The notes under the pieces: model-generated | Told to the model about the DNA's origin: nothing | The model's input: only the letters and a program-made list of their open reading frames with translations | Database searches by the model: none | Shown: one piece after another, positions 1,065 to 36,018 of the stretch | Layout of the letters: each line of letters opens with the position of its first letter | Numbering within the stretch: position 1 is the stretch's first letter | Made by a program: the position numbers and the translations under genes | Source of the DNA: a virus | UHGV virus genome: UHGV-0153024 | Reading direction: 5' to 3' (one strand) | DNA: 38,923 nucleotides

Positions 1065-2096
1065 TCAAAAACTTGCTATTGATGTTGGTAGTGTTGCCAG
1101 CGGATTAAACCGTAGTGCAGTTTCCAGGTGATCCGGTGCCAGATGTGCGTAACGCATAGTCATTTTTATATCGTGATGCCCGAGAATTTTTTGTAAGGCC
1201 AGGATATTTCCACCCGACATCATGAAGTGCGCCGCAAACGTATGGCGCAGAACGTGTGTCAGTTGACCGCGAGGGAGCACGATAGACGTTTTTTCCATCA
1301 CGGATAAAAATTGAAAATAGCAGTCTGTAAAGAAATTGAACCCATCAAGCGCCATGATCTCTTCGTAAAGCTCTTTACTGATAGGGATGCTTCTGTTTTT
1401 CTTCCCCTTCGTTCTTACAAAGGTAATTCGGTATTTGGTCACCTGTGAGCGGGTAAGATTTACGGCTTCACGCCAACGTGCGCCTGTGCTTAAGCATATC
1501 TTAACTACCAGTGCCAGAATTGGGTCCTGACGTTTGCAATCAGCCAGCAATTCAACAATCTGCTCATGGGTAAGCCATGCCATCTCTTTTTCTGCAATGG
1601 TGAATTTTCGCATGTTCTCCAGTGGGTTCGGATACGACCATTCGCCCAGGCGGGATAGTTCGCTAAAAACACTACTTAGATAGCTTTGCTCCAGGTTAAT
1701 GGTGACCGGGCTTGCTCCTTTCTTCCATTTCTCGCTGAAGTAGATCTCACCTGTCAGGCGTTTATCTCGATAGTGGGCAAACATTTTAGATGTGAGATCA
1801 GTTGCAAGGGGATTGCCCAGAGCGTCAACCATCAGCAGCAATTTGTCATAGACATGCTGCCCAGCAGTCAGTGATTTACCATGTAGTTTGAACCATAGCT
1901 CAACCACGTCTTTCAGTGTTCGACGATCTACTGATTCACCCAGCCAGGGCTTTGCTTCGGTTTCTTCCATCGTGTGACGCTCAAAAGCCAGAGCTTCGCC
2001 TTTGGTGGCGAATTGTTTACGCACACGACGCCCACTTCGTCCGGCGGGGTAACATTCGCAAAGCCATTTCCCTGTGGTGAGTTTTCGTACTGCCAT
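1065..2096 (-). CDS. int: Tyrosine integrase (phage integrase family)
   Basis: 343-aa ORF; C-terminal catalytic region with R...HxxR...Y pattern (LTHVLRHTFAAHF, HHDIKMTMRYAHLAPDH); at the prophage end next to att, as in P2. Confidence 0.9.
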   Translation of the reverse strand: MAVRKLTTGKWLCECYPAGRSGRRVRKQFATKGEALAFERHTMEETEAKPWLGESVDRRTLKDVVELWFKLHGKSLTAGQHVYDKLLLMVDALGNPLATDLTSKMFAHYRDKRLTGEIYFSEKWKKGASPVTINLEQSYLSSVFSELSRLGEWSYPNPLENMRKFTIAEKEMAWLTHEQIVELLADCKRQDPILALVVKICLSTGARWREAVNLTRSQVTKYRITFVRTKGKKNRSIPISKELYEEIMALDGFNFFTDCYFQFLSVMEKTSIVLPRGQLTHVLRHTFAAHFMMSGGNILALQKILGHHDIKMTMRYAHLAPDHLETALRFNPLATLPTSIASF

Positions 2097-2176: not shown

Positions 2177-2707
2177 TTACCTTAATTTATCAAGCTCTCG
2201 TTTATTTCTTTTATCATGTATATCATTAAGAAATAATATATTACTAGCAATGATACTAAATAACGCTATTATTTGTAGATATACTAATAACGCTGTGATA
2301 AAAAATCCAAACTTGCAGAACACGTGCTTATGCAAGGAAATGAAATCCAGATTTGAAAATATAGGTTTCGTTAAATTTATTATAACAATAGAAAATATTA
2401 CAATAGCTGAAATTATAATGGTTTTCACTATCAGCGTAATTCGCTCAATATCTTTTTCTGTTTCCTTATGATAGTTTATACTAGTTATTGTTGATGGCTT
2501 TACAATTGAACTTACAGCTGCAGGGTAAATATATGCAAGCCAAATACCTGCAATAGTGAAGATCATTGCAGAAATGTTTTGCAAGGTAGATAAAATATCT
2601 TTTATATCTGCATACGTATATTTGTCTCCGAACAAATAAGCAATAGCTATAATTGTTAGGAGAAAACATATGTGCAAAATTTTAGGTTTTATAATCATAC
2701 TATGCAC
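2177..2707 (-). CDS. Small integral membrane protein (176 aa, about four predicted TM helices); candidate RexB-like effector
   Basis: Four hydrophobic segments (ILHICFLLTIIAIAYLF; AMIFTIAGIWLAYIYPAAV; ITLIVKTIIISAIVIFSIVIINL; FGFFITALLVYLQIIALFSIIASNILFL); very AT-rich; start overlaps the upstream 400-aa gene by 8 nt. Confidence 0.6.
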   Translation of the reverse strand: MHSMIIKPKILHICFLLTIIAIAYLFGDKYTYADIKDILSTLQNISAMIFTIAGIWLAYIYPAAVSSIVKPSTITSINYHKETEKDIERITLIVKTIIISAIVIFSIVIINLTKPIFSNLDFISLHKHVFCKFGFFITALLVYLQIIALFSIIASNILFLNDIHDKRNKRELDKLR

Positions 2708-3902
2708 CTATTTTATGAATCTGCACTGCTGTATCATTATCAGCTTCTGGTTGTTCTATTATATCTTCATTTTTAAAACAATTCACCAAATCATTTCTAT
2801 GAGCTTTTACCACACTCATTAAATATGAAGAAGAGTAATGTTTGTTTCTGTTAGAAAGGTCAACGTGAATTTCATGGCGATAAACATATTCATCTAACCA
2901 AGTAGTTGAACCATTTTTCCCATTTATTTTGAATCCGATGCGTGCGTGATCATTCCCTACATTCTCATTGTTGTTTTCTGTATCTTCTGAAATAGGATTG
3001 TGGTTTTCTATATATTCATCGATGAGTTTAGTGAACTCTTCAGGCGTAGGCGTTCCTTCGACTAATAATTCAACGCGATGTTTTTTTGATAAAATAGGAG
3101 AGCTTCTTGAGAAAACATCTCCAACTGCATCAAATAACTTCTGCCATTTTTCCCGTGTATCAGGTATGTTTGTTTCTATTACGTCATGGTAAACAATGTG
3201 AGTGATTTTTTTACACAGTTCTTCTATGTTTGCTCCACTCGTGATCATCCTTGTTTGTTTAGTCTGTACTTTAAAAACTAAACTTTCATCATCACCTTGA
3301 GAAAAAAGAACACGTTTGTAATGAACGTCTTCAGGTGAGTCATTACGAGGACGAGTCATATCTATGACTTTTTTATTAGGATGCTCCATCCTAAAGTCAA
3401 CGTATGCTTTAATATAATGACAGAAAAGATCTGTATCCGTATTAGAACTTGGGAATCGTATGGATGCAATTTTGTTATATTCTGGAATTACCCAATAGTA
3501 GCAAGGTACGCCCCAGATATATTTACCGCCACCTTGAGTATCAGAGGCGGATACAACATTATCTGAAGTGCCGTCAATCTTACTTTCAGCATCTATACCT
3601 TGAATATTTCCAGAGTTATCACCAAGCGTTTTCCAGATAACAAATAGATAATCTCCTGTCGTACTGTCATATGAAATATTTTTACAGTATGCTTTTGTTC
3701 TTCTATTATTATCCTTTCCCCATGGAACAGATTGTTCAACTGTTCTTGAACAGATCCAGCTATGTAAGTTACACAGAACATGGGATAAGTTCTTTTCGAC
3801 TAATTCCGGCGATTTGCCTTGTCGTATTTTATAAAGGCCAAACATTTCTAAATCAAAAAATGTTATAATGCCGCGTTCAGTTTTAAAGTTGGTTTTACTC
3901 AT
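2700..3902 (-). CDS. Hypothetical protein (400 aa), first gene of the repressor-linked cargo operon
   Basis: Long AT-rich ORF directly downstream of, and co-oriented with, the CI-like repressor; purine-rich RBS (GAAGAGAAG) upstream of the ATG; no recognisable catalytic motif by eye. Confidence 0.65.
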   Translation of the reverse strand: MSKTNFKTERGIITFFDLEMFGLYKIRQGKSPELVEKNLSHVLCNLHSWICSRTVEQSVPWGKDNNRRTKAYCKNISYDSTTGDYLFVIWKTLGDNSGNIQGIDAESKIDGTSDNVVSASDTQGGGKYIWGVPCYYWVIPEYNKIASIRFPSSNTDTDLFCHYIKAYVDFRMEHPNKKVIDMTRPRNDSPEDVHYKRVLFSQGDDESLVFKVQTKQTRMITSGANIEELCKKITHIVYHDVIETNIPDTREKWQKLFDAVGDVFSRSSPILSKKHRVELLVEGTPTPEEFTKLIDEYIENHNPISEDTENNNENVGNDHARIGFKINGKNGSTTWLDEYVYRHEIHVDLSNRNKHYSSSYLMSVVKAHRNDLVNCFKNEDIIEQPEADNDTAVQIHKIGA

Positions 3903-3982: not shown

Positions 3983-4864
3983 TTAATTCGAAATGATTGT
4001 GCTTCTTATGCATGCAACTACCTCGATATCAGAAAATGCACATTCAAAGTAAGTTTCTTTACTTCTGATATTTATCATACCTTTAGGTAGCCTAGTAATT
4101 TGTCTGACGGAATAGGTTCCATCAATATTAATTAACCAGTATCCATCTAATACATCAGAAAATTTCTGATCACAGATGTATGCCACTAAACCATCCTGAA
4201 CGACAATTGGTGCTGAAAGATTAGCGGGTAAAAATGACGAATCGAAAATATATGAGCCACTCTCAACCATTTTGCCTGCATTGAGATGAAATTTAGGCAG
4301 TTCTTTTACCGATGTTGTGAGAGCATTGTGCTCGCTGCCTTGTCCAGTGGCTAGCCATAAAAGAGAATTTCCTGTTTCCAACGAACATTTTATGATCCAA
4401 TCAGCCGGGAATGTGTCTCGCAAATATCTATTTGCCATAGTGCTTTTAGATACATTCAGATGGTCGGCAAGTTCTTGTCTTGTTTTAAAGCCATACGCTT
4501 TCATTAGCCTGTCTATTGCATCACGTCCGCCTGAGTCAAAATTCAGATCGTTCCCAATTGGGGACTTCAGGGTGGTGGCTTGGGAAACGTGCTGAACCTT
4601 TGATGCAGTTGCCTTTGACATGACCGGAGCCTCAGTACTCTGAGGGAATGGTACGCCTTTTCCGAATGAGAGCCACTCGATAGATGCACCCGTTTCAATT
4701 GCACACTGAATTACCCAGTCAGCAGGAAATACGTCACGCATCCAGCGCGTGCCCATAGTGCTTGCAGATACGTTGAACTGTTCGCACAGAGCTTGCCTTG
4801 TCTTGAATCCATACGCTTCAAGCATGCGCGTTATGACTGCTTGTCCTCCGTTTTTGAAATTCAT
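3983..4864 (-). CDS. CI-like immunity repressor with tandem-duplicated N-terminal DNA-binding domain
   Basis: 293 aa; two similar ~60-aa segments (MLEAYGFKTRQALCEQFNVSASTMGTRWMRDVFPADWVIQCAIETGASIEWL and LMKAYGFKTRQELADHLNVSKSTMANRYLRDTFPADWIIKCSLETGNSLLWL) resembling the phage 186 CI-type HTH; divergent from the Apl/Cox-like gene. Confidence 0.75.
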   Translation of the reverse strand: MNFKNGGQAVITRMLEAYGFKTRQALCEQFNVSASTMGTRWMRDVFPADWVIQCAIETGASIEWLSFGKGVPFPQSTEAPVMSKATASKVQHVSQATTLKSPIGNDLNFDSGGRDAIDRLMKAYGFKTRQELADHLNVSKSTMANRYLRDTFPADWIIKCSLETGNSLLWLATGQGSEHNALTTSVKELPKFHLNAGKMVESGSYIFDSSFLPANLSAPIVVQDGLVAYICDQKFSDVLDGYWLINIDGTYSVRQITRLPKGMINIRSKETYFECAFSDIEVVACIRSTIISN

Positions 4865-4890
4865 TTATTACGCCTTTGAGTAATTTTTGG

Positions 4891-4919
4891 TTGACACTTC
4901 TCAAATGAAGAATTAGTGT
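4891..4919 (+). promoter_or_regulatory. Candidate rightward early promoter (TTGACA-17 nt-TAGTGT) in the cI/apl intergenic region
   Basis: Perfect -35 hexamer TTGACA at 4891-4896, 17-nt spacer, weak -10 TAGTGT at 4914-4919, about 70 nt upstream of the Apl/Cox-like start. Confidence 0.4.
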
Positions 4920-4989
4920 GTGCGAAAGTGAACTGAACAGGATTAATCACCAGTTACCACACATCTTGTTAAACGAGGAATCTTGCATC

Positions 4990-5211
4990 ATGGCTCCACA
5001 TATTTCAATCACCTTAGCTGTCCCATCTGTTTCTATTGAGAAATACAGTGAACTGACTGGGTTATCTATCGATACTATCAATGACATGCTGGCTGATGGA
5101 CGCCTTATTCGCCATCGTCTCCGTAAAGATAAAAAGCGAGAAAAGGTAATGATCAATATCGCAGCAATGACCGTTGATGCGCTCTCTGAATGCAATTTGA
5201 GTATTAACTAG
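4990..5211 (+). CDS. Apl/Cox-like excisionase / transcriptional regulator
   Basis: 73-aa ORF (internal start in track ORF 4918..5211), divergent from CI, as cox is in P2 and apl in 186. Confidence 0.55.
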   Translation: MAPHISITLAVPSVSIEKYSELTGLSIDTINDMLADGRLIRHRLRKDKKREKVMINIAAMTVDALSECNLSIN

Positions 5212-5243
5212 TTCCATTTTGGGATACATCAGGGGTATCGACT

Positions 5244-5753
5244 ATGTTTGATTACCAAGTTTCCAAACATCCACATTTTGATGAAGCCTGTCGAGTATTC
5301 GCACTGCGCCACAACCTGGTGCAACTGGCAGAACGTGCAGGCATGAATGTGCAGATTCTGCGGAACAAGCTGAACCCAGCTCAACCTCATTTATTAACCG
5401 CACCAGATATCTGGCTACTTACCGATCTGACTGAAGATTCAACGCTGGTAGACGGTTTTCTGGCACAGATTCATTGTCTGCCATGTGTACCGATTAATGA
5501 GGTGGCAAAAGAGAAACTGCCACATTACGTCATGAGTGCAACCGCAGAGATCGGGCGTGTTGCTGCAGGTGCGGTATCTGGCGATGTAAAAACCAGTGCA
5601 GGCCGTCGCGAAGCTATCAGCAGCATTAACTCTGTAACACGACTGATGGCGTTGGCCGCTGTTTCATTGCAGGCCCGTTTACAGGCTAACCCTGCGATGG
5701 CGAGTGCAGTTGATACCGTGACTGGCCTCGGTGCTTCATTTGGTTTGCTGTGA
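5244..5753 (+). CDS. cII: Phage regulatory protein CII (186 CII-like)
   Basis: 169 aa, the same length as phage 186 CII, and strongly reminiscent of it from memory ([11 protein letters not shown]...[25 protein letters not shown]). Confidence 0.7.
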
Positions 5754-5760
5754 GGTGCTT

Positions 5761-6057
5761 ATGCTGACGAAAGAACCATCATTTGCATCGCTGCTGGTAA
5801 AACAAAGCCCGGCAATGCACTACGGTCACGGCTGGATCACGGGTGAGGATGGAAAACGCTGGCATCCATGTCATTCACAAGATGAATTGCTGTCTGAATT
5901 GACCACGAGGAAACGGAGAAAGTCCAAATGTATGCGGCAGAAAGTGAAGTGGTTTATCAGTTTCGTTACAGAGGGGAGAGTTATTCAGTACCTGAAGATG
6001 ATTTGCTCTGTTGCTATCCGTCATTGTCGGGCGATGGCAGTTACTTTTTCACGTTAA
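5761..6057 (+). CDS. Hypothetical early protein (uncertain)
   Basis: ATG at 5761 preceded by GAGGTG; overlaps the next ORF by about 130 nt in another frame. Confidence 0.3.
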   Translation: MLTKEPSFASLLVKQSPAMHYGHGWITGEDGKRWHPCHSQDELLSELTTRKRRKSKCMRQKVKWFISFVTEGRVIQYLKMICSVAIRHCRAMAVTFSR

Positions 6058-10608: not shown

Positions 10609-10700
10609 TTACGCGGATTAACAATTCGTGCTCTTAATAATACCAGGCATATCAGGCTGATGAACGTAAAAAAACGTTTTACATCAGTAAGATTATTATA

Positions 10701-10720
10701 TACTGTAAATATAAACAGTG
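10701..10720. promoter_or_regulatory. LexA (SOS) box TACTGTAAATATAAACAGTG
   Basis: Fits the CTGT-N8-ACAG consensus (CTGT 10703-10706, ACAG 10715-10718); about 45 nt upstream of the small ORF that precedes the DinI-like gene. Confidence 0.6.
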
Positions 10721-10761
10721 GTTATACATACAGCATTTCTTGTGGTGTCATAGGAGGAAAG

Positions 10762-10950
10762 ATGCAGGACTATTTTTTGGAGTCTTTGAAGCTCCAGCGC
10801 ATTGATTTTTTTCTTAAGCTTGTAGCGGCTAGTGAGTGTAGTGATGAAGAGAAGGGGCTGGCTCTGCAGTGGGTTTCTGAACTAACAGATGAACTCATGG
10901 CAAAAATCAGAACCCACGAATACAACCGCTCAATGGATGTCATCAGCTGA
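10762..10950 (+). CDS. Small SOS-regulated protein (62 aa), candidate Tum-like antirepressor
   Basis: Strong RBS (AGGAGG) 6 nt before the ATG; immediately downstream of the LexA box; context resembles the 186 tum operon. Confidence 0.5.
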   Translation: MQDYFLESLKLQRIDFFLKLVAASECSDEEKGLALQWVSELTDELMAKIRTHEYNRSMDVIS

Positions 10951-10960
10951 GGTGACTTTT

Positions 10961-11194
10961 ATGCGCATTGAAATAATGATCGATAAAGAGCAGAAGATTA
11001 GCCAGTCTACCCTGGACGCCCTTGAATCCGAGCTTTACCGCAATCTGTGCCCCCTGTATCCCAAAACGGTAATTCGCATTCGCAAAGGTAGCTCTAACGG
11101 TGTGGAACTAACCGGACTGCAACTGGACGAAGAAAGGAAGCAAGTGATGAAAATTATGCAGAAGGTGTGGGAAGACGACAGCTGGCTGCATTAA
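10961..11194 (+). CDS. DinI-family protein
   Basis: 77 aa, MRIEIMIDKEQ...ELYRNLCPLYP...KIMQKVWEDDSWL, resembling DinI (MRIEVTIAK...ETWESADDWF) from memory; RBS GAGGTGA. Confidence 0.7.
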   Translation: MRIEIMIDKEQKISQSTLDALESELYRNLCPLYPKTVIRIRKGSSNGVELTGLQLDEERKQVMKIMQKVWEDDSWLH

Positions 11195-35709: not shown

Positions 35710-35799
35710 TTCTTCGCAATGGAGAACTTTTAAGTTTGCAAAATGGAATAATGCGGTATCATTATTGTGAATTTGGCAAAAATGGGGAGAACTCGAAAA

Positions 35800-36018
35800 A
35801 TGATGATTTGCCCACTGTGTGGAAGTGCCGCCCATACTCGCAGCAGTTTTCAGGTATCTTCATTGACCAAAGAGCGTTACAACCAGTGCCAGAACATTAA
35901 CTGCAGCCATACTTTTGTTACCCATGAAACTTTTGTTCGTTCGATTGCAACGCCAAAAGAGTCAAATCCGGTTCAGCCGCATCCAATGAAATCAGGACAA
36001 GTGGCGCTCTCTCTTTGA
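35800..36018 (+). CDS. ogr: Late gene transcriptional activator Ogr (zinc-finger; 186 B-like)
   Basis: 72 aa starting MMICPLCGSAAHTRS with CxxC...CxxxxC zinc-binding pattern, closely resembling P2 Ogr from memory (MFHCPLCQHAAHARTS...KERYHQCQNVNCSATF); RBS GGGGAGA; abuts attR. Confidence 0.8.
   Translation: MMICPLCGSAAHTRSSFQVSSLTKERYNQCQNINCSHTFVTHETFVRSIATPKESNPVQPHPMKSGQVALSL

Follow-up and report, generated by a model that had tools for sequence, protein, structure and literature searches.

Why should an immunity repressor of the phage 186 type possess two DNA-binding domains, when the protein from phage 186 itself has one? The question is raised by the cI gene of the virus genome UHGV-0153024, all 38,923 nucleotides of which were analysed and are called the window below. 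The gene (3983..4864, minus strand) encodes a protein of 293 amino acids (aa), in which a first-pass annotation made from the DNA letters recognized two related helix-turn-helix (HTH) segments in tandem. That annotation proposed an internal duplication that would have altered operator geometry and immunity specificity. Phage 186 CI is among the best-studied alternatives to the lambda switch, and the work on it, including that on the 14-mer wheel by which it wraps and loops DNA, is all on a one-headed protein. Our comparisons indicate that the gene in the window is instead a fusion of repressors from two immunity lineages, and that both of its DNA-binding domains (hereafter ‘heads’) are kept by purifying selection. 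We have high confidence in the domain architecture, in the origin of the gene as a chimera and in purifying selection on the two heads, taken together. Less secure is the explanation that we favour as a whole, in which each head would be dedicated to its own class of operator; we assign it a probability of roughly 0.45.

The open reading frame (ORF) lies at exactly the coordinates given above, and Pfam places Phage_CI_repr (PF07022) on its product in two stretches (E 4.6e-59 over the whole protein) and Phage_CI_C (PF16452) at aa 189-285 (E 1.2e-25). Using a small domain hidden Markov model made from the two copies, we set head 1 at aa 1-72 (4649..4864) and head 2 at aa 107-178 (4331..4546). 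Between them is a linker of aa 73-106 (4547..4648), and an inter-domain link with the C-terminal oligomerization domain completes the protein (aa 179-293; 3983..4330; all features on the minus strand). When the N-terminal 95 residues are compared with the remainder of the protein by BLASTP, 39 of 70 positions are identical (56%, ungapped, E 1e-32), and the alignment reproduces the consensus noted in the first pass. An AlphaFold2 single-chain model, for which the alignment input was 36 two-head homologues, has a mean predicted local distance difference test score (pLDDT) of 80.4 over the whole protein. It contains two confident five-helix bundles at aa 7-67 and 113-173 (pLDDT about 82-92 overall, ~88 for head 1 and about 82-89 for head 2), a disordered stretch at aa 76-106 (pLDDT <50) and a beta-rich C-terminal domain at aa 186-291. 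The modules are, in order, head 1, a flexible 34-residue linker, head 2 and a 186-type C-terminal domain, and the initial description of a CI-like repressor with paired HTH domains and a distinct C-terminal domain has held up well.

The top Foldseek match of this model is 186 CI (2fjr, E 3e-18), whose sequence match to the two-head protein (E 2.8e-27) spans aa 114-284 only. The C-terminal domain superimposes on the wheel domain of 186 CI (2fkd_A) with a template modelling (TM) score of 0.93, a root-mean-square deviation of 1.2 Å and an E-value of 2.6e-11. In phage 186, C-terminal domains of this type form dimers and a 14-mer wheel. The fold match, which comes from a single-chain prediction, is compatible with the same dimer and wheel assembly in the window's repressor. 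No Peptidase_S24 domain was matched by Pfam in this protein at E-values up to 1, and LexA C-terminal domains have remote fold similarity only (E 7e-6 and weaker, TM about 0.3-0.6). The window's CI therefore resembles 186 CI (2FJR, 2FKD) in its PF07022 HTH, in its C-terminal fold and in the position of its gene, which stands before int and faces apl-cII-fil. However, it has two heads in 293 aa at an identity of about 28%, whereas the 186 protein, described in the first pass as single-headed and about 190 aa long, has indeed one head in 192 aa.

How the second head was acquired can be read from the relatives of each part. Head 1 is 81-86% identical to the heads of the single-head 206-aa CI proteins P0116 and P0100, which we call lineage A. 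The single-head protein P0005, of 198 aa, aligns from its residue 2 to its C-terminus with residues 97-293, at 73% identity, and head 2 shares 72-78% of its residues with the heads of single-head CI proteins of 197/198 aa. This second group is our lineage B, represented by Escherichia phage vB_EcoM-813R9 and Klebsiella phage KP12, both with a 198-aa CI. Within the window's protein, head 1 and head 2 are about 54-56% identical to each other. In a neighbour-joining tree of 42 heads, head 1 was grouped with the P0100/P0116 heads in 497 of 500 bootstraps, and neither its own head 2 nor the head 1 domains of other two-head proteins joined it in any (0/500 for each). Because head 1 clusters with lineage A almost without exception and never with its own partner, the sequence comparisons indicate that the gene is a fusion of two immunity lineages and not an internal duplication. 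Of the duplication first proposed, the homology of the two heads stands, and their origin by copying within this gene does not.

The surrounding DNA is divided in the same manner. The segment 4645-5319 is collinear with the switch of the lineage-A prophages that carry P0116 and P0100 (71-72% nucleotide identity), and 4976-5800, comprising apl, cII and fil, is 88.6% identical to the lineage-B phage 813R9, whose CI is of the P0005 type. The portion 3983-4500 is 75% identical to that phage, and compared with 813R9 and KP12 the window's apl-cII-fil segment is 86-89% identical. Given these identities, the window is a KP12/813R9/4LV2017-type backbone into which a foreign pR-pL segment and a foreign head have been brought. 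Head 1 and the adjoining pR-pL region are related to an ESSI-2-like switch, and the part from residue 97 onward is a complete KP12/813R9-type repressor followed by apl, cII and fil of the same lineage B. The P0116 prophage is itself ESSI-2-like and has another genome layout, with ogr directly after the portal gene rather than at the att end. Lineage A and the window share head 1, the -35 element and the three-site layout of pR-pL, whereas their C-terminal domains are about 38-40% identical and their operator arms differ (CTTTCCA versus TTCTTCA/CTTCTCA).

Most two-head proteins sit in a separate, older clade, in which head 1 is distinguished by the helix SQSTMANRYARD and by a leader of 19 aa, and is monophyletic in 303 of 500 bootstraps. 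The markers of this main clade, namely the helix and a leader MSTxKxTFRH at the ATGTCAAC start, are absent from the window's head 1, which begins MNFKNGG, carries the helix SASTMGTRWMRD and is 50-61% identical to main-clade head 1. Since the other two-head proteins form a group apart from the window's head 1, the two-head design has arisen at least twice. The two-head CI proteins of Klebsiella phage 4LV2017 (Elveevirus), of ST437-OXA245phi4.2 and of many enterobacterial prophages have the same succession of a head, a hydrophilic linker of ~35 aa, a second head and PF16452. The 4LV2017-type phages also share the apl-cII backbone and the pB region with the window. However, overall identity to their CI is 42-48%, and their pR overlaps the cI start codon, as it does in lineage B.

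The linker probably holds the fusion junction together with the former 5' end of the second gene. An internal in-frame ATG at 4619..4621 (minus strand), which encodes Met82, lies within ATGTCAA, the start signature of lineage-B and main-clade cI genes, and GAGG occurs 8 nucleotides upstream at 4627-4630 (minus strand). The ATGTCAAC start is found in L001, L012 and others, and in lineage-B and main-clade cI the signature overlaps the -35 element of pR. We regard the Met82 codon, from this resemblance, as probably the ancestral start of the second gene; it is kept in the variant L010, and both ATG and GAGG are lost in L008/P0003. The palindrome described below and the ATGTCAA signature are the only recognizable lineage-B remains in the linker. 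The idea that the linker as a whole is a translated former operator region was discarded, as a local alignment with the DNA that precedes lineage-B cI reached a score of 29, when shuffled sequence scored up to 28. The fusion might have proceeded from two tandem cI genes by loss of the C-terminal domain of the first. Two IMG/VR contigs, L043 (2312-3855) and L081, have a pair of complete cI genes, one behind the other on the same strand and downstream of apl. In these a 189-aa single-head CI (PF07022 + PF16452) is followed 50 nucleotides later by a 307-aa two-head CI, an arrangement that a deletion could convert into a fusion of this sort and that may represent a precursor-like state for a head-adding fusion or a prophage with two repressors.

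Selection on the two heads was gauged by the ratio of non-synonymous to synonymous substitution rates (dN/dS) between the window and two variants that have diverged within its lineage, L010 (P0002) and L008 (P0003). For head 1 this ratio is 0.014-0.017 (13-15 synonymous changes against 1 non-synonymous change) and for head 2 it is 0.04-0.15, whereas the fast-evolving linker gives 0.38-0.71 and the C-terminal domain 0.36-0.47, the latter with synonymous sites saturated in the comparison with L008. The HTH recognition-helix segments, STMGTRWMRD in head 1 and KSTMANRYLRD in head 2, are invariant in all three variants, and across the two-head family the head-2 helices are as well conserved as their counterparts in functional single-head repressors. 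Strong purifying selection maintains both heads in all three variants. Divergence among them starts near codon 75; head 1 and the pR-pL region are nearly identical in all three, and the C-terminal domains have diverged widely. This pattern of a constant head 1 and pR-pL beside divergent C-terminal domains indicates mosaic exchange around a conserved module composed of ‘pR-pL plus head 1’.

Neither the gene nor its architecture is an isolated curiosity. Twelve complete E. coli genomes contain the cI gene at >=99.5% identity and 19 others contain versions of 87-89% nucleotide identity, which brings the lineage to 31 of the 5,426 complete genomes of this species; IMG/VR viral contigs carry the gene too. 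Because the same gene recurs in so many complete genomes and in IMG/VR contigs, a frame or assembly artefact, which the first pass had named as a possible undoing of its claim, is ruled out. The other objection foreseen there, that this might be a standard architecture, is partly borne out, given that two heads (290-330 aa) are present in 46 of the 120 best homologue clusters (about 38%), the other 74 having one head (179-235 aa). Hosts of the two-head clusters include E. coli, Salmonella, Klebsiella, Citrobacter, Enterobacter, Kosakonia and Edwardsiella, and the clusters whose source names them are labelled ‘phage repressor protein CI’ or something similarly generic. Among GenBank phage records, a two-head protein under the name ‘repressor protein CI’ is encoded in 20 entries for Klebsiella prophages of the 4LV2017-like and ST437-OXA245phi4.2-like kinds, and the CI proteins of 186, Fels-2, SopEPhi, RE2010 and ESSI-2 have one head only.

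When 1.84 billion cluster representatives were searched with only head 2 as the query, 223 proteins were returned, and about 30 of the best 150 have two matched stretches. Four proteins with four to seven stretches (P0199, P0223, P0234 and P0247) were considered as multi-head CI proteins and rejected, as they are TPR/CHAT proteins or other HTH arrays. In the literature that we searched for two-head 186-type CI, no paper describing or testing either form was found, and the variation mentioned in a 2011 comparison of P2-like switches is limited to linkers or C-terminal domains of greater length (PMC3448106). The two-head architecture is thus recurrent and annotated under a generic name, and we found no study of it. 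As a side observation, the single-head lineage-A repressor P0116 is found in 1 of the 5,426 complete E. coli genomes (L099, E. coli LR-51, NZ_AP027550.1 1370865-1400329), and the fused form of the P0116-type head, with its 31 genomes, is the commoner of the two.

What each head might read is best approached through the operators. In phage 186, the annotated CI sites are three over pR and two at pB, together with FL, within cI at a distance of about 290 bp, and FR, where apl ends; the distal sites (ATTCAC-N5-GTGAAT) are of another sequence class than the pR sites (PMC3675496). The 186 repressor reads both classes with one head, whereas two heads of different ancestry are available in the window. 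The pR region (4867..4933), which is homologous to the lineage-A switch and almost invariant in the three variants, contains a -35 element TTGACA at 4891-4896, a weak -10 element TAGTGT at 4914-4919 and three candidate operators: ATTACGCCTTTGAGTAAT at 4867-4884, CTTCTCAAATGAAGAAT at 4897-4913 and GTGTGCGAAAGTGAAC at 4918-4933. The hexamers were assigned by homology, and the sites by eye and by analogy with the annotated 186 pR; a consensus promoter scan called neither pR nor pL. The centres of the candidate sites are 29.5 and 20.5 bp apart, as in the single-head prophages of lineage A and in the main two-head clade. The altered operator geometry anticipated in the first pass consequently has no sign at pR, at least with sites placed by eye, and a changed immunity specificity is plausible.

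Members of the main two-head clade share both the pR sites and the head 1 helix but differ in head 2. Because of this joint conservation, and because head 1 and pR have been inherited together in the window's lineage, we tentatively pair head 1 with pR. At 4934-4945, on the pL side of the first pR site, the spacer between pR and pL in the window's lineage is 11 bp shorter than in lineage A (L003/L006), and the missing 11 bp include one TGGAAAG half-site of the lineage-A layout.

For head 2, the clearest candidate target lies within the gene itself. Single-head lineage-B phages have a 16-bp palindrome with the consensus GTMCCCAAWTGGGRAC at -45 of cI (over the +1 of pR) and, in less perfect form, at +14 of cI, and nowhere else in ~6 kb. 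The window has a palindrome of the same length at 4550..4565, GTCCCCAATTGGGAAC, which matches this consensus with 0 mismatches, is unique in the 38.9 kb, did not occur in 100 shuffles and is identical at 15 of 16 positions to the pR operator of the single-head phages L041/L044. It spans codons 100-105 (KSPIGN), a position homologous to the lineage-B +14 site. In 813R9 and KP12, which have no head 1, the -35 element of pR overlaps the start of cI, with operators at -45 and +14, whereas the corresponding positions fall inside the coding sequence in the window. The centre of the palindrome is ~336 bp from the -35 element of pR, compared with ~294 bp for FL in 186, which makes it a candidate distal, FL-like site for head 2.

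Among two-head genes, the GTMCCCAAWTGGGRAC motif is carried only in the head-2 leader and only where the head-2 helix reads ...ANRY.... Main-clade genes with this helix have a copy with 2-3 mismatches at +341/+350, and those with an ...ATRY... head 2 lack the motif, as do single-head ATRY phages. Since the segment is predicted to be disordered, conservation of its P-I-G/E-N motif might be explained more easily at the level of DNA than of protein.

From these observations we propose that the C-terminal domains would assemble as in 186 and would display two rings of heads. Head 1, on its tether of ~34 residues, would read the three candidate pR operators that were inherited with it, and head 2 would read lineage-B-type sites, the clearest of which is the intragenic palindrome ~340 bp from pR. 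This palindrome might act as the distal FL site does in 186, to strengthen repression of pR and to tune pL by looping. There would then be two operator classes with one dedicated head each, where 186 uses one head for both. Immunity to superinfection by phages of either lineage might follow as a by-product, as might control of backbone promoters. A foreign head is evidently no obstacle to the 186 scaffold, because a hybrid repressor made of the lambda CI N-terminal domain and the 186 C-terminal domain is functional and forms DNA loops (PMC8053113; PDB 7jvt). In that engineered lambda-186 hybrid (PDB 7JVT; PMC8053113) the head was replaced, whereas in the natural CI of the window a head was added. 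The particular assignment of heads to sites is a tentative element of this proposal, to which we would give somewhat less than even odds on the present sequence comparisons. Still bolder, and in our estimate unlikely, is the generalization that naturally two-headed 186-family repressors are built for dual specificity and have originated repeatedly, here through fusion of tandem repressors from two heteroimmune phages. In such a scheme the distal head would serve the immunity-defining operators at pR, the proximal head would serve a second class of sites, one of them within its own gene, and dual immunity might follow.

Several findings weigh against a dedicated role for each head. Lineage-A prophages have pR sites of better palindromic symmetry than the window does, and in either sister variant the intragenic palindrome departs from the motif by 2 mismatches, such that it may be only a relic inherited with the leader of head 2. 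Shared descent alone could likewise be the source of the association between motif and helix. No lineage-B-type site with <=3 mismatches is present at the pR, FR or pB of the window, and head 2 therefore has only one strong candidate target. The element at the FR position does not covary with head type, and the pB region (35714-35799) is 96-97% identical in phages with different types of repressor (KP12, 4LV2017 and Kp4845-2). Finally, identity of the recognition helix does not fix the operator, as is evident from Fels-2 and Kp4845-2.

Three further ideas were rejected on these grounds. Covariation of the FR-position element with head type was sought in 70 loci. In the window this element, GTTCCATTTTGGGATAC (5211..5227), lies at the end of apl, overlaps the pE region and aligns with the annotated FR of 186, although its status as an operator is ambiguous. 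Across the loci the element (TCCCAAAATGGAAC) tracks the apl-cII backbone and overlaps pE: single-head phages with the helix LATRYMRD carry TTTCAGAATCGAAC, whereas two-head phages with the same head-2 helix carry TCCCAAAATGGAAC. The pB promoter was considered as a reason to retain head 2, and with no lineage-B motif there at <=3 mismatches it offers a half-site resemblance by eye only. The notion that specificity can be deduced from the recognition helix alone failed because Fels-2 and Kp4845-2 share the head-2 helix SKSTMANRYLRD and have unrelated operators, so specificity must rest on residues beyond that helix. The switch motifs of Fels-2 (L098, 31760-31960) and Kp4845-2 (L094) also differ from those of the window, and CAATATTTGATAC occurs twice in Kp4845-2. 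Upstream of the window's B/ogr gene, GCAA(A)ATGG(A/G)GAAC repeats are found where 186 has its two pB CI sites.

Other explanations for a two-headed repressor must be weighed against the one that we prefer. Perhaps the second head mainly binds the operators of heteroimmune phages and the prophage's own switch needs head 1 only, so that a single prophage would shut out superinfecting phages like those of lineage A and of lineage B alike. This possibility, which we consider unlikely, is compatible with our preferred explanation and does not exclude it. It accords with heads that come from two different immunity lineages, with the 72-78% identity of head 2 to the heads of lineage-B phages whose pR operator is GTMCCCAAWTGGGRAC, with the ability of such phages to infect E. 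coli (813R9) and with the lack of a lineage-B site at the window's own pR. However, it leaves unexplained the retention of a perfect lineage-B palindrome within the gene, as well as the occurrence of head 2 next to the C-terminal domain and the apl-cII-pB backbone in nearly all two-head repressors. Cross-immunity with lineage A is moreover doubtful, given that the first helix residue of head 1 is not the one present in lineage-A heads and that the pR sites are also different. Somewhat more improbable still is that one head is a non-binding remnant, perhaps a spacer or folding partner, and that the protein works as an ordinary 186-type CI with a single specificity. The presence of only one strong head-2-type site in the window would suit such a remnant, as would the heads in the 186 crystal, which pack against each other in a non-binding way (PMC3675496), and the fusion could be a recent and tolerated accident. 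Even so, a remnant would hardly be expected to have a dN/dS far below that of the linker and C-terminal domain, as both heads do, nor recognition helices that remain invariant while synonymous sites have diverged by 0.3-0.5. The family-wide conservation of the head-2 helices, equal to that of working single-head repressors, and an architecture that is widespread and arose at least twice also argue for two functional heads.

Translation from Met82 offers a further alternative, in which a 212-aa single-head protein is made alongside the 293-aa form and the two are combined in mixed wheels. The in-frame ATG at 4619-4621 within ATGTCAA, its GAGG 8 nucleotides upstream and their retention in L010 give some substance to this idea, but the loss of ATG and GAGG in L008/P0003 means that the feature is not required in the lineage, and we judge two isoforms to be very improbable. 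The least probable account is the in-situ tandem duplication of the DNA-binding domain, from which a dimer would have four heads of the same ancestry and gain avidity or an altered spacing of half-sites. The two segments are clearly homologous (56%, E 1e-32). In the main clade, head 1 starts right after the conserved ATGTCAAC and the leader of head 2 resembles the N-terminus of a single-head protein, for which reason an old internal duplication is possible for that clade. For the gene in the window, in contrast, each head is nearer to a different single-head lineage (86% and 78%) than to its partner (54%), the grouping expected of its own duplication appears in 0/500 bootstraps, and the spacing of the pR sites equals that of single-head relatives.

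The remainder of the window is consistent with a switch of the 186 kind. The gene order int (minus strand), cI (minus), apl (plus), cII (plus) and fil is the 186-type layout, in which cI heads the leftward lysogenic operon (promoters are inferred), and the window is a 186-like (Peduoviridae, P2-family) E. coli prophage. The integrase gene at the end of the leftward operon (1065..2096, minus strand) was identified from its ORF, its nucleotide similarity to 186 int and the same order in related loci. The rightward lytic operon begins with an apl/cox-like gene of 73 aa (4990..5211, plus strand; in frame with ORF 4918..5211), whose product has no Pfam match and is homologous to proteins annotated Cox/Apl in 813R9, KP12 and Fels-2. 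It is followed by cII (5244..5753, plus strand), an ORF that corresponds to the RefSeq ‘phage regulatory CII family protein’ and has 71% nucleotide identity to 186 cII. The B/ogr homologue is at 35800-36018.

A candidate SOS module of the Tum/DinI type is also present, through which this CI might be controlled by a LexA-regulated antirepressor, as in 186, and not by self-cleavage. Its candidate component for SOS control is an ORF at 10889-11194 that resembles DinI and the C-terminal part of Tum, being 41% identical to residues 71-145 of 186 Tum. A LexA box, CTGTAAATATAAACAG, is located at 10703, before a small ORF and the DinI-like ORF (region 10660-11194). The N-terminal part of Tum seems to be a separate or overlapping ORF, whereas 186 has one protein, and Fels-2 likewise annotates a separate DinI-family gene. 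Between cI and int (2177-3902, minus strand) are two overlapping genes, of 400 aa and 176 aa, that match the PADLOC candidate defence system PDC-M18 (PDC-M18A, E 2e-36; PDC-M18B, E 5e-24). Different cargo occupies this position in related prophages: L010 has an AAA_15/AAA_21 ATPase with DUF4276, 813R9/KP12 have a ‘chromosome segregation ATPase’, and L008 has two ORFs that lack annotation. The interval between cI and int in the lysogenic operon has the appearance of a defence hotspot whose content varies.

Two-head repressors are already present in databases under a generic name, and in this lineage the form arose by fusion and not duplication. The window's gene is a clean natural experiment, in that each head has a single-head relative with a recognizable operator motif, and the assignment of heads to sites is for this reason directly testable. 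If head 2 is inert, then the finding shrinks to an ordinary mosaic repressor. If both heads bind DNA, however, recombination between heteroimmune prophages would be able to create new immunity types while control of the rest of the genome is left intact, and the gene would reveal a route by which a repressor can widen superinfection immunity. Such a protein would also provide a natural template for multi-specificity looping repressors in synthetic biology.

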